This document shows positions 49,799 through 53,526 of a stretch of DNA of 64,000 nucleotides, one piece after another. Each line of letters begins with the position of its first letter. The stretch's first letter is position 1. Origin of the DNA: an uncultured archaeon (GTDB taxonomy: Archaea > Asgardarchaeota > Lokiarchaeia > Sigyniarchaeales > SOKP01); the NCBI GenBank assembly GCA_964486045.1, contig CAZALK010000012.1:1-64000 (forward strand). Direction: 5' to 3'. The notes beneath the pieces are model-generated. The model was not told the origin of the DNA. It searched no databases and saw only the letters and a list, made by a program, of their open reading frames with translations. A program made the translations under genes and the position numbers.

Positions 49799-50716
49799 AT
49801 GAATGACTCAAATATTCAAGACTATATTAAAGCCGGAAAAGGAGTTATTGCTGCTAAAAAACTAGCAAAAAAGATTATTAAGCCAGGAGTAACTTTATTA
49901 GAAATTGCTAATAGATGCGAAGCAGAAGTCATCAAAAATGGGTGCGAATTATCATTTCCTATTAATTTATCATTAAATGAAATTGCTGCTCATTATAGTC
50001 CACCAATAGGAGATCGAACGATTGTTCCTGAAAATGGACTTTTAAAAATTGATATTGGCTCTCATTTTAATGGTTATATTGCGGATTCAGCTTTTACTAT
50101 TAATATTGATGAAGATCCGATCTTACAAAACTATGTTGATGCTGCAAAGGAAGCTCTTGATGCTGCTATAGAATTATTTACCCCCGGAATCAAATTATAC
50201 GAACTGGGAGAAAGAATTGCTCAAAAAATTATTAATCGTGGACTTAGGCCTATCACAAATCTTGGTGGTCATGAATTGAAGCAGTTTACTTTACATGCTG
50301 GACCTTTTATTCCAAATTATAAAGAGAGATTACATAATCAGTTATTAAAACCAGGAGATGCTTATGCGTGTGAACCATTTGCTACCTCTGGTGTTGGTAA
50401 AGTTGAAAATGGAAACATATCTTATATTTTCCGATTTGTAAGAAAAGTTAAGAGAAATGTGTCCTATGAGCATCAAGGATATATGAATAAAATTCAAAAA
50501 AATTTTGGTAATCTCCCCTTTTCTCCACGCTGGATAAATAATAACAAGATTATACCAAATGATAAAATCACTAGAACGATTGAATCATTTATTGGAAAGA
50601 AAATTTTGGATAAATATCCTATCTTACTAGAAAGAGCTAGAGAACCTGTAGCTCAAGAAGAACATACAATTATATTGGATAAAGATGGAAATAAAATTGT
50701 CACTACTAAAGAGTAA
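49799..50716 (+). CDS. map: Methionine aminopeptidase type II
   Basis: FP.NLS.NEIAAHY, KIDIG.H..GYIADSA, NLGGH, EPFAT, AQEEHT. Confidence 0.95.
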   Translation: MNDSNIQDYIKAGKGVIAAKKLAKKIIKPGVTLLEIANRCEAEVIKNGCELSFPINLSLNEIAAHYSPPIGDRTIVPENGLLKIDIGSHFNGYIADSAFTINIDEDPILQNYVDAAKEALDAAIELFTPGIKLYELGERIAQKIINRGLRPITNLGGHELKQFTLHAGPFIPNYKERLHNQLLKPGDAYACEPFATSGVGKVENGNISYIFRFVRKVKRNVSYEHQGYMNKIQKNFGNLPFSPRWINNNKIIPNDKITRTIESFIGKKILDKYPILLERAREPVAQEEHTIILDKDGNKIVTTKE

Positions 50717-51539
50717 TTTTATAGATACCATAAAAACTATAATTCTTTGTGCTGGAGAAGGAACCCGCATTAGGAATTTTTTTCCTAATATACCAAAACC
50801 ATTAATAAAAATAAATCATGAACCAATTCTTTGGTCCTTGATCTCCAATTTAATAAAATCATACATTACTTCAATTATAGTAGTAACTGGGCATTTAAAT
50901 GAACAAATTGAAAGCTATTTAAAACTAATCATACAAAAAGACGAGTCACTTAAAAGCAAGATTTTGATCATTAATTCAGGAGATGATTATAAAAAAGGAC
51001 CATTATATTCCTTCCTATCAACTACAAGAGAAAAAGGAATTCTAAAAAAAGATTTAATATATCTCGTTTTTCCAGGTGACACTTATTTTGAATCCAATTT
51101 AATTAAAGAATTAATCACATCCATTGATAATGACTCTAATTTTATCAAAAACAACTCGGTTATCTTCTATCAGGAATTACCGGGAAAGAGCCTAAAAAAT
51201 ACCACTAATTTGAATAAATCAATCTCAATTATTAAAACTGAAGAACTAGATTCATTGGAAATAGTAAAAGAAATCAGTCAATTAGATGTTACTTCAATTA
51301 GTGAAAGTGCATATTATAAACAGATCATACCTTTATTTGTATTTAATTATAAATTCATTGAAAAGATAATTGAAACCGAAACTAAAGCTTCTGTAAAAAC
51401 TATAAGAGAAATTATCAATATATTAATCCAAGGAAAACAGATACTTTATACATACTGCCTAAAATCAGACAATAGATTTTTTGATATTGATACTAGATCC
51501 GATTATTTAAGGATAAATCAAGAAAAAAGAGGACAATAG
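50685..51539 (+). CDS. NTP-transferase (sugar-phosphate nucleotidyltransferase-like)
   Basis: ILCAGEGTRI...PKPLI; FFDIDT..D. Confidence 0.85.
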   Translation: MEIKLSLLKSNFIDTIKTIILCAGEGTRIRNFFPNIPKPLIKINHEPILWSLISNLIKSYITSIIVVTGHLNEQIESYLKLIIQKDESLKSKILIINSGDDYKKGPLYSFLSTTREKGILKKDLIYLVFPGDTYFESNLIKELITSIDNDSNFIKNNSVIFYQELPGKSLKNTTNLNKSISIIKTEELDSLEIVKEISQLDVTSISESAYYKQIIPLFVFNYKFIEKIIETETKASVKTIREIINILIQGKQILYTYCLKSDNRFFDIDTRSDYLRINQEKRGQ

Positions 51540-51974
51540 GTGCCCCGATTATTCCAGAGTAACTTTGATTCAATGGAAAACTATAAATATTTATCCTATG
51601 AAGCAACGAGGTAATCAAAGCTCCTATCTTAAATTTTAAATTCGTCAGAGTTCTTGGTGATTGGGGGTCTCGAGTATCAAGAAGAACCTGCCATCAACAG
51701 CATTCAATTTTTCAGTTGACTATAAGCCGAATACGAATTCAAAAACAAACTCATGTACTAATTGAAAAACTTATCATTTTTCTCCAAAGTGCTAATTCTA
51801 GGGATTCTATAACAGAATTATTGTAAAAAATCAAATATTAATATTCCGTATTTTTGTATCAAAAACAAATTTCCGCTAATAAGGAATAAGTAAATGTTAA
51901 TTATGTGATTAAATCGGTGCTAAACCCGTAGTTTAGTATAAAAATCCAATGCTAAACTAACCTATTGTTCCTCT
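51523..51974 (-). ncRNA. Candidate ~450-nt structured non-coding RNA of unknown class
   Basis: Ends pair (51528-51540 with 51961-51974); several internal helices; TATA box about 26 nt upstream and T6 tract at the 3' end on the minus strand; no ORF in the track. The strand rests on the promoter and T-tract, since G.U pairs occur on both strands. Confidence 0.65.
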
Positions 51975-51983
51975 AACTAATAG

Positions 51984-52004
51984 ATACCAATTTTGGTATT
52001 TAAA
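51984..52004 (-). promoter_or_regulatory. TATA box (TTTAAATA, 52004-51997) overlapped by the palindrome ATACCAA-TT-TTGGTAT (51984-51999)
   Basis: Seen directly; spacing to 51974 fits an archaeal TATA-to-TSS distance. Confidence 0.55.
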
Positions 52005-52109
52005 TCTTGCTATATTAAAATTTTTATTACGGCAGAGTGTTTCTTTGAAAAAAGATTTATGAGGTTTTCAAAATAATATAAATATCTGCATTTATATTAT
52101 TTATAAGAC

Positions 52110-52502
52110 ATGAATAGTGATGCTGGTTTAGTCACAATCAGAATAAATTTATTCGGAATAGGTATATTAGAAGCATATCTCATTAGACATATTGCCCCAC
52201 TAACCACAGATGCGATAATTGATAAAATCCCATTTTCTATGAGAGGTAGATTCAGTTTTGGATCAAAAAAATATTGGATTCTTCCCGGATTAGGAATATA
52301 TAAAGGAACTAATAGTAAATCCGTTAAGGATGTAGATAAAGGTGATATTGTTTATAACCCAAAGACAGACGAGATGATAATAATTATAGAACGTCTTCAG
52401 ATGCCAAATAAAGTGAACAAGGTGGGCAAAGTGAATTCAAACTTAGAATTAGTACTAAATGCTAGGAATGGATTAAAGACGAAAATATCTAAGATATCCT
52501 AA
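52110..52502 (+). CDS. Cyclophilin-like fold protein (DUF369/DUF3830-like)
   Basis: L.RHIAPLT.DAI...IPF; V.KGDIVY.P; N.VGKV. Confidence 0.65.
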   Translation: MNSDAGLVTIRINLFGIGILEAYLIRHIAPLTTDAIIDKIPFSMRGRFSFGSKKYWILPGLGIYKGTNSKSVKDVDKGDIVYNPKTDEMIIIIERLQMPNKVNKVGKVNSNLELVLNARNGLKTKISKIS

Positions 52503-52508
52503 TATAAA

Positions 52509-53345
52509 ATGGTAGTTTCGAAGAAATTAACTGTAATTTTTGCTAGTTTTTATATATGTGTTATTATTTATATCCTATTATTTTTATTTGTACCCAATAT
52601 TCAAAATGCTATCATTCAGTCGAGAGAGAATTTAACTGTTTTTACTGAAGGATCTAATTATTTATGGGCTCTACTAGTCTCTCTTGGGATATGTTTTTTA
52701 GGTTCTGCATCAATAGGGTTTCCAATTCCTTTTCCATTTGTATTGTTTTCTCTTTCAAACTCAATAATTCTTAGATATTCAAATTCTGGATTAAACATTA
52801 ACCAAATATTACAAATTGGAAGTTTTTGGGGAGAAATTATTGGTATTACATTGATAGGTGGTTTAGGGAGTGCTCTGGGGGAGTTTACTGGCTATGCTGT
52901 GGGGTACGGAACTAATAAAATTACTGAAGAGTGGAATTCTGAATTACTTAGTAATGTAGATAGATTTGGAAGGATAATTTTAGAAAATAAGAAACGGACT
53001 CCATTATATATTTTTTTATTTGCTCTAACTCCACTACCGGATGATATTTTATTCTTACCCTTAGGAATGATAAAGTACAGTTTTTGGAAATGTATTATTC
53101 CTGGTTGGTTAGGTAAGAATTTTACTACACTTTTTTATTGTTGCTGGCCTATCTTAATCGCGCTAGGATTTACTTCTCAGGGCATTCAATCCAATAGTAA
53201 ATCAAGTATAATAACAGAAGCGATATTATTATTAGTAACAATTACTGTAATGTTTTTTATTATGTCTTTTGATTGGACTAAATATCTTGAAAAACGAAAG
53301 CTAAAAAAGTTAAAAAGAGATGGAGATGAAACAATTTTCCAATAA
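52509..53345 (+). CDS. DedA/VTT-domain membrane protein
   Basis: GGLGSALGEFTGYAVG; FLFALTPLPDD. Confidence 0.85.
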   Translation: MVVSKKLTVIFASFYICVIIYILLFLFVPNIQNAIIQSRENLTVFTEGSNYLWALLVSLGICFLGSASIGFPIPFPFVLFSLSNSIILRYSNSGLNINQILQIGSFWGEIIGITLIGGLGSALGEFTGYAVGYGTNKITEEWNSELLSNVDRFGRIILENKKRTPLYIFLFALTPLPDDILFLPLGMIKYSFWKCIIPGWLGKNFTTLFYCCWPILIALGFTSQGIQSNSKSSIITEAILLLVTITVMFFIMSFDWTKYLEKRKLKKLKRDGDETIFQ

Positions 53346-53526
53346 ATCAATTTTAAGGATTATTTTTTAAACAATTTTTACAAACAAAAACAATTTTTTG
53401 TTTCTCATTAGAATTTTCATCATAATAGACACGCTTATATATAAAATTGTTACAGAGAACACAAACTTCAGCAGTTCGAGTTTCATTTAATAATGGACCT
53501 AAATTTTTAAAATTAGACTTCATAAA

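Follow-up and report, generated by a model that had tools for sequence, protein, structure and literature searches.

We analyse here a stretch of 64,000 nucleotides (nt) from an uncultured archaeon of the Lokiarchaeia (positions 1 to 64,000 of contig CAZALK010000012.1, GenBank assembly GCA_964486045.1; the window in what follows), and in particular a 570-nt gap between two of its plus-strand genes, an NTP_transferase family gene and a cyclophilin-like gene. On the minus strand this gap holds a promoter, the two ends of an RNA and a U-tract, and the gene for a noncoding RNA (ncRNA) of about 450 nt that they delimit lies at window positions 51523-51974. Our analysis of this locus and of its counterparts in related genomes indicates that it is very probably a genuine stand-alone gene belonging to a new ncRNA gene family.

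The promoter, a strong one of the BRE/TATA type, carries the TATA box TTTAAATA (52004-51997) as part of the longer element GATTTAAATA (52006-51997). About 30 nt downstream of the TATA box, base pairing begins with the strand AGAGGAACAAUAGG (51974-51961), and this distance suggests A51974/G51973 as the start of the RNA. The 5'-end strand AGAGGAACAAUAGG is complementary to CCUAUUGUCCUCU (51540-51528), and we call the helix that joins the first and last 10-15 nt of the RNA P1. The conjunction of TATA box, paired ends and U-tract is far beyond what chance would produce, and it is found again, identically spaced, in about 90 relatives' genomes. A preliminary description, made from the letters of the window, had proposed a minus-strand RNA gene of about 450 nt with exactly these parts; all of them are found where it placed them, and P1, as described below, covaries. 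The RNA is AU-rich (about 30% G+C). At the locus there is no open reading frame (ORF) of at least 40 amino acids on the plus strand and a single one, of 41 amino acids, on the minus strand, and among 87 homologues no ORF is conserved: the longest ORF has a median length of 33 amino acids and its position is inconsistent between species. The features of the gene and its immediate neighbours are collected in Table 1.

Table 1. Window coordinates of the RNA gene, its parts and the two flanking genes (BRE, B recognition element).
Feature	Coordinates	Strand	Remarks
Promoter	51997..52018	-	upstream TTAATA-type element and GATTTAAATA (BRE/TATA)
5' end and P1 5' strand AGAGGAACAAUAGGU	51960..51974	-	pairs with 51541-51528
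Hairpin H1	51929..51959	-	stem UAGUUUAG/CUAAACUA, 15-nt loop with CAUUGG (51951-51946)
Hairpin H2	51915..51928	-	CGGG...CACCG; CGGU/ACCG in relatives
Variable central region	51705..51914	-	includes UAUUCC/GGAAUA (51888-51883 with 51847-51842) and remnant GCACUUUGGAG (51792-51782); based on alignments
Helix Hx	51667..51702	-	UGCUGU.. with ACUCGAG; conserved GAGAC at 51671-51667
3' domain	51536..51627	-	H-a, AUAGGAGCUUUGAUU (51627-51613) with AAUCGGGGCACCUAU (51550-51536)
P1 3' strand ACCUAUUGUCCUCU	51528..51541	-	about 420 nt downstream of 5' strand; CCUAU overlaps with H-a
Oligo-U terminator U6	51523..51528	-	directly after P1 3' strand
NTP_transferase family gene, convergent	50685..51539	+	last codons and TAG stop inside P1 3' strand/terminator
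Cyclophilin-like gene, divergent	52110..52502	+	other border of the conserved interval

Distribution and synteny among relatives

Comparison of the syntenic interval across relatives, a check that the preliminary description had itself proposed, recovers the same gene in all loci checked, with P1 and the 3' domain covarying when measured against shuffles. Roughly 90 loci were compared, and the gene order is constant throughout: M24 peptidase, NTP_transferase, the RNA (antisense), cyclophilin-like gene and VTT-domain gene. At the nucleotide level, blastn against 40 relatives finds two conserved blocks, the first approximately 150 nt and the last approximately 115 nt, lying some 400-450 nt apart; both are present in 22 of the 24 genomes of the same genus and in none of the remaining relatives searched.

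Two models were used across the order and the family. The first, the covariance model R1, was built on the 3' domain and reaches 116 bits at the present locus. It gives one forward-strand match per genome in 89 of the 151 genomes of the order, all of them in one family (one genome, G138, is exceptional in having matches on two contigs); by genus the matches amount to 47/52 in g1, 35/42 in g14, 5/8 in g16 and 1/1 in g23. Where R1 failed, synteny located the RNA interval in g12, g13 and g15. In these genera the interval has the same promoter, the 5' end GGAYAAUAG ... GCAUUGGUU, a 3' hairpin and then CUAUURUCC with a U-tract, and the 3' domain has diverged beyond recognition. A pattern for the 5' end matches 102 of the 134 genomes of the family. 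The second model, R2, describes the sequence of promoter and 5' end, and the promoter is conserved enough that R2 finds the gene in every genus, with strong matches in all 13 genera sampled of the family. The 3' strand and U-tract were confirmed in g12, g13, g15, g16, g17, g18, g19, g20 and g22, and in g21 (a single genome, G113) the 5' end is present and no convincing 3' partner was located. Altogether the gene is retained across more than 100 species-level genomes, with coordinates for about 100 homologues, and the RNA is about 360 nt long at its shortest (g17, g23) and about 630 nt at its longest (g13).

The promoter is among the best kept parts. Its block TTAATAAnAAGATTTAAATA hardly varies among 51 homologues of 10 genera and keeps a constant spacing to the 5' end (alignment A6, columns 2-22); across the 10 genera conservation extends past the TATA box to a CAT(A) that precedes the start by about 10 nt. 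In all genera GATTTAAATA precedes the first paired base by 29-32 nt and a U-tract comes after the last paired base, as it does in essentially all homologues. Moreover, the conserved features of the RNA are far better kept than the neighbouring NTP_transferase protein, which is 34-63% identical within the genus.

In the six other families of the class we found no credible copy, in a search that very divergent homologues could escape. Several candidates were examined and rejected. Pattern matches in the sister family f2 (L102-L104) have neither a TATA box nor a 3' partner, and outside the family the best R2 matches fall on the promoter and 5' untranslated region of an ABC-ATPase gene in G038, on coding sequence in G155 and on promoters alone in G035 and G028. 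In a closed genome of f2 a different, coding gene lies upstream of the cyclophilin-like gene and the interval is not syntenic. Of possible paralogues in four genomes (G005, G097, G075 and G008), the matches checked, those in G005 and G008, fall inside ORFs. Taken together, the comparison shows that the RNA gene is vertically inherited, single-copy and fixed at one chromosomal position across one family of Promethearchaeia (Loki-type Asgard archaea). Own promoter and terminator, compensated helices and no conserved ORF, which mark a stand-alone ncRNA gene in the generic sense, are all found here, and these properties, with the covarying P1, the family-wide synteny and the lack of an Rfam family, bear out the view of the preliminary description that it might be a new large Asgard ncRNA.

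The distribution also bears on whether the locus is a relic of a mobile element, or an RNA domesticated from one. The ends of the RNA form an inverted repeat of 13-14 bp, as in a miniature inverted-repeat transposable element (MITE), and guide RNAs of the omega or bridge type could be considered too. However, its own genome and every relative carry just one copy of the gene, additional pattern matches lying inside ORFs, and a single copy in the 5.18-Mb genome removes the MITE reading of the inverted ends. The syntenic position is fixed across 13 genera, neither a transposase gene nor one for TnpB or IscB adjoins it, and the wobble pairs of the RNA are strand-specific. We regard a mobile origin as extremely improbable.

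Terminal helix and internal structure

The two strands of P1 lie 350-600 nt apart and yet are joined by compensatory changes. In 87 sequences anchored on GGA...UCC the P1 core is 98-100% paired. One pair of the core is C-G in 69 sequences, U-G in 13 and U-A in 5, and is G-C in g22, and the pair following AUAG is G-C in 36, U-A in 35 and A-U in 11. Genera that were added later alter previously invariant pairs on both sides: P1 reads GGAGAAUAG/CUAUUCUCC in g22, GAACAAUAG/CUAUUGUUC in g19 and AGACAAUAG/CUAUUGUCU in g18, with a change from G-C to A-U in each of the latter two. The outer extension of the helix compensates as well (GAAAAGG/CCUUUUC, GGAGG/CCUCU, GAUGG/CCAUC). Among 54 distinct strand pairs the share of paired cells is 78.5%; shuffles give 71.2 ± 0.8, none of 500 reaching the observed value, and when the partner strand is slid, pairing falls to 36-55%. 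The changes also tell the strands apart. Read on the opposite strand, the U-G wobbles of P1, of Hx and of the H-a tandem would become A-C mismatches, and since these pairs fail there, and since promoter and terminator point the same way, the RNA is fixed to the minus strand.

In a small marine metatranscriptome two contigs of close relatives lie inside the RNA, one at 51826-51929 (96% identity) and one at 51623-51830 (84%), which shows presence in an RNA library. Could the interval nevertheless be a conserved intergenic DNA element, a set of protein-binding sites rather than an RNA gene? On the proposed strand the minimum free energy (MFE) z-score falls short of significance, and the transcript is so far a predicted one, both of which would suit such an element. 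Binding sites on DNA, however, do not require compensatory changes over 350-600 nt, a canonical archaeal promoter and a U-tract flank the paired region in every genus, exactly at its two ends, and the contigs of the RNA library do fall on the RNA. A DNA element is on this evidence very improbable.

In the 3' domain, counted over 72 model-aligned sequences, 91.8% of cells are paired and 8 pairs have changed on both sides, values to be read in the knowledge that the alignment was fitted to the model and hence leans towards the structure. Its covariation score is reached by 0 of 500 shuffles, and slid controls give 34-51% pairing. Helix H-a, formed by AUAGGAGCUUUGAUU with AAUCGGAGCnCCUAU, includes an invariant tandem of U-G pairs, and it encloses an irregular hairpin (about 51608-51563) carrying UUCAUAGGA...UCCAUUGAA. 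In H-a of relatives AAUCGGAGC pairs with GCUUUGAUU, with 94.5% paired. A different helix proposed in the preliminary description, GCUUUGAUU/AAUCAAAGU, is peculiar to the window: the relatives read AAUCAAUUA there, and the partner is AAUCGGAGC. Upstream of the 3' domain, helix Hx shows 89-96% pairing with C-G/U-G and U-A/U-G changes (RNAalifold, 71 sequences), that is, changes of the wobble type only, and its 3' strand ends in GAGAC, which is conserved in g1, g14, g16 and g23.

The 5' part is more loosely documented. The CAUUGG motif in the loop of H1 is invariant or nearly so in all genera. The H1 stem, UAGUUUAG/CUAAACUA, which had also been proposed in the preliminary description, does have a counterpart in relatives, with 74% of cells paired, but compensatory changes are few and the support in alignment A5 is statistically weak. 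For H2, seen in g1, g23 and part of g14, 94% of cells are paired and the changes are one-sided (wobble) only. The central region is the most divergent part between genera, in length as well as in sequence. Here UAUUCC/GGAAUA has a plausible counterpart, AUCCU/AGGAU, in relatives, and two further helices of the preliminary description, CUGUU/GGCAG and UUCUUGAU/ACCAAGAA, occur in the window and its nearest relative only. The copy in the window also lacks about 85 nt (at about 51860-51870, against 1400-1500 of locus L005) that are kept by its nearest relative and by most of the family. In most homologues (L013, L018 and L008, for example) an internal tract of U8-U11 is found about 100-120 nt from the 5' end, the counterpart of which in the window, at 51861-51870, is only U5; it is possible that this tract terminates part of the transcripts, giving a short 5' isoform of about 110 nt.

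The RNA also contains an internal repeat. AAUAGG occurs at 51961-51966 and again at 51622-51627, followed in each case 10-30 nt later by CAU(U/A)GGA (51946-51951 and 51594-51599), one copy of which lies in the H1 loop and the other in the 3' hairpin. In the window either AAUAGG is able to pair with the 3' tail CCUAUU. In g1, g14, g16, g17 and g23 the AAUAG(G) of the RNA 5' end returns in the 5' strand of the 3' hairpin, and therefore both copies are able to pair with the 3' tail CUAUU. The two competing helices overlap by 7 nt in g17, and there is no such overlap in g15 and g20. That two AAUAG ... CAUUGGA modules compete for the 3' tail in several genera may point to two functional conformations; the competing pairings may amount to a switch, or may merely reflect branch migration at a coaxial junction. 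The preliminary description had envisaged a switch of another kind, through duplicated GUUUAGCA. The second copy of GUUUAGCA is specific to the window, and that proposal is therefore unsupported.

Neighbouring genes and known RNA families

The RNA gene is closely packed between its neighbours. The NTP_transferase gene runs into it: the TAG stop (51537-51539) complements the CUA in the 3' strand of P1, and the final codons complement the U-tract of the terminator, an overlap of about 17 nt that recurs in other genera (tblastn, all loci checked). On the other side about 135 nt separate the RNA promoter from the cyclophilin-like start codon. The divergent promoter region that these two genes have in common contains a 20-nt inverted repeat (52064-52109; 85% complementary, 6-nt spacer), which ends exactly at the cyclophilin-like start codon.

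Such an arrangement raises the possibility that the RNA is mainly a cis-acting element, antisense or insulating, that regulates the genes beside it: position and orientation are strictly conserved, the stop codon of NTP_transferase is built into the P1 3' strand, and the promoter stands back-to-back with that of the cyclophilin-like gene. We think this unlikely. The coding overlap is limited to the few nucleotides just given, whereas the covariation of P1, the 3' domain and the CAUUGG loop lie outside it and are better conserved than NTP_transferase, and antisense interference needs no structured transcript of 360-630 nt with an end-to-end helix.

We compared the RNA with Rfam 15, using gathering thresholds over the 64-kb window and a permissive limit of E ≤ 10 on the locus and 19 diverse homologues (20 loci from 10 genera). 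No family matches at gathering thresholds anywhere in the window, and at E ≤ 10 no family is found on the RNA in the 20 loci, with matches at chance level only (SNORD24 at 21.6 bits, U7 at 18.9 bits; the present locus itself gives SNORD24 and two weaker matches). The impression of the preliminary description that the RNA matches no canonical motif holds up in this search. ARAGORN finds no tRNA-like gene or transfer-messenger RNA in 51000-52600, and full-text searches of the literature turned up no account of an RNA like this one from Asgard or Loki archaea.

The preliminary description had offered as its other option a very divergent RNA of RNase P, RNase MRP or the signal recognition particle (SRP). 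On that reading P1 and a long-range, P4-like helix would form the catalytic or targeting core. Size and end-joining helix are indeed similar, and the window sequence AAUCGGGGCA looks like the CR-V of RNase MRP RNA. An Alba gene about 1.5 kb from the RNA gene could be added to these, since Alba has the fold of the eukaryotic RNase P/MRP subunits Rpp20/25; it is syntenic in 3 of 3 other genera checked, but nothing ties Alba to the RNA. (Beside the Alba gene, at 53353-53523 on the minus strand, a 56-amino-acid ORF has a weak Pfam match to SNAPC3, with E 0.0019 and 18.3 bits against a cut-off of 23.8, which is probably due to chance.)

Against this identification, the models of RNase P, MRP and SRP RNA give no match at E ≤ 10 on the locus or on the 19 homologues, and the genome has these RNAs elsewhere. 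A canonical RNase P RNA lies at C18:75104-75427 (147 bits, full-length model), and a search of the whole genome with RF00373 at E ≤ 10 gives besides only a 9-bit match on contig C4. An SRP RNA lies at C9:155907-156055 on the minus strand (L004), where the S domain is matched with 47.6 bits and E 2e-9 over model positions 109-263; Alu-like sequence is found upstream and a U-tract downstream, and the score stays below the gathering threshold of 96.5; the SRP RNA of this lineage seems to be poorly covered by the Rfam model. Nor do the individual motifs hold. The candidate for the conserved P4 of RF00373, GCACCGAUU/AAUCGGGGC, on which the P4/CR-V idea of the preliminary description was built, is not kept in relatives and competes with the better-supported H-a, its 3' strand AAUCGGAGC being engaged with GCUUUGAUU. 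As for the CR-V of MRP RNA (RF00030), the GGGGC of the window is GGAGC in relatives; the CR-V-like motif corresponds there to AAUCGGAGC, paired with GCUUUGAUU rather than with the 5' strand, and the supposed 5' partner CACCGAUU is absent from g14, g16 and part of g1. Finally, a distribution over one family is unlike that of a universal enzyme. That the RNA is a divergent member of these families we hold to be highly unlikely, and an annotation of the locus as RNase P, MRP or SRP RNA is to be avoided.

Small guide RNAs were considered for their boxes. For the C/D-box class, the SNORD24 match (21.6 bits against a gathering threshold of 41, E 0.87) was rejected, the boxes not being conserved: the C/D-like UGAUGG and CUGA (51641-51702) occur only in the window and in one relative (G013), and the other relatives have UUGAAK. 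The H/ACA class was rejected too. GAGACA follows Hx in many relatives, but the window has GAGACC and others GAGACU or GAGACC, so that ACA is not invariant, and the 25-35 nt enclosed by Hx leave no two-sided pseudouridylation pocket.

Comparison with known systems helps to place the RNA. It shares with RNase P and MRP RNA (RF00373, RF00030) the character of a large stand-alone RNA of 300-450 nt with its own promoter, a P1 that joins the ends and modular domains of variable length, but it differs in having no CR-I/CR-V, no conserved P4 and no model match, and in being confined to one archaeal family where those RNAs are universal. With archaeal SRP (7S) RNA (RF01857) it has in common a similar size class, paired ends, an own promoter and, presumably, stability, whereas the helix-8 and helix-5 motifs and a model match are missing and the SRP RNA of the genome is on another contig. 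The likeness to C/D-box and H/ACA guide small RNAs is confined to the weak SNORD24-like UGAUGG ... CUGA of the window and the ACA-box-like GAGAC(A) after a helix; the new RNA is 6-8 times longer, with unconserved boxes and no pseudouridylation pocket. It also resembles OLE, raiA, GOLLD and ROOL, large bacterial ncRNAs without an assigned function, which are likewise lineage-restricted RNAs of several hundred nucleotides that belong to no other known family and carry invariant blocks in covarying helices. Unlike these, however, it is archaeal, has no sequence or model similarity to them, is AU-rich with modest predicted stability, and has a centre that evolves much faster; and while OLE stands in an operon with the gene of its partner protein, oapA, the new RNA has no partner-gene operon.

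A possible mechanism and its significance

What could an RNA of this kind do? We tentatively favour a scaffold in a ribonucleoprotein (RNP), that is, a stable, trans-acting, protein-bound RNA. Both ends of the RNA would be shielded by P1 together with the hairpin that stacks on its 3' strand, and a hairpin or hairpin domain does lie directly 5' of the P1 3' strand. The invariant elements, namely the P1 core GGAYAAUAG/CUAUURUCC, the CAUUGG loop, GAGAC and the GGAGC helix with its tandem U-G pairs, would serve as sites of protein binding or tertiary contact, and the freely varying middle would act as a tolerant scaffold. The explanation in terms of a new gene family, tempered by this mechanism, we consider probable as a whole.

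Several observations weigh against this account. The covariation of H1 and H2 is weak or one-sided and is not significant on alignment A5. RNAalifold applied to the full-length alignment A1 recovers little beyond small helices and portions of the 3' domain, a poor yield that arises because the central region is misaligned. The predicted thermodynamics are unremarkable, with z = -1.1 for the MFE of the RNA strand, 15 of 100 shuffles folding as well, and z = -3.2 for the opposite strand; the MFE z-scores are not informative, and where the preliminary description spoke of a highly structured RNA the comparative evidence agrees with it and the thermodynamics do not. The shuffle statistics for covariation overstate significance, since related genomes are not independent samples. 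The stretch lost from the copy in the window includes the otherwise conserved strand UGUUCC..AGUGC, whose partner GCACUUUGGAG remains, and three species of the genus (L023, L048 and L091, from genomes G019, G076 and G022) have neither the CAUUGG hairpin H1 nor the CGG hairpin H2, their RNAs of 364-398 nt retaining P1, GAGAC and the 3' domain. Since conserved elements are lost in some genomes, parts of the RNA are dispensable. Of the motifs bound by known RNA-binding proteins, such as a kink-turn or an Sm site, none has been established in the RNA, and no protein partner identified. The sole RNA library, moreover, consists of assembled contigs that carry no information on strand, ends or level and in which carry-over of DNA is possible; its contigs reach neither the flanking genes nor the ends of the RNA, and we do not use absence from it as evidence.

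The same architecture could belong to a catalytic RNA, a new class of ribozyme rather than a passive scaffold. The RNA is large, with short invariant blocks amid freely varying helices, the U-G pairs of H-a form an invariant tandem of a kind known to bind metal ions, and two alternative pairings compete for the 3' tail in several genera. Large conserved ncRNAs of bacteria have, in addition, often proved to be catalytic or architecturally elaborate. On the other hand, no ribozyme family matches, the RNA is AU-rich and of modest predicted stability, some species have lost conserved elements, and there is no evident candidate for a substrate or a cleavage site. A ribozyme is in our judgement improbable, though together with the cis-acting role it makes up the live competition, and we retain the protein-bound scaffold as the favoured mechanism.

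More generally, it is possible, though more tentative still than the scaffold itself, that the RNA is the first known representative of a new class of large RNP RNAs in archaea, perhaps catalytic or switchable. The gene is well defined, with promoter, ends, P1, 3' domain and about 100 homologues in hand, and it is apparently indispensable in the entire family. To our knowledge, very few large conserved structured ncRNAs exist, and most of those known are ribozymes or the cores of ancient RNPs; in archaea we know, beyond ribosomal RNA, of essentially only two large structured RNAs, RNase P RNA and SRP RNA. Among prokaryotes, Asgard archaea stand nearest to the eukaryotes. Every genus sampled of a species-rich Asgard family retains a third large RNA, and its being kept family-wide therefore points to a previously unrecognized RNP or RNA activity in that lineage.

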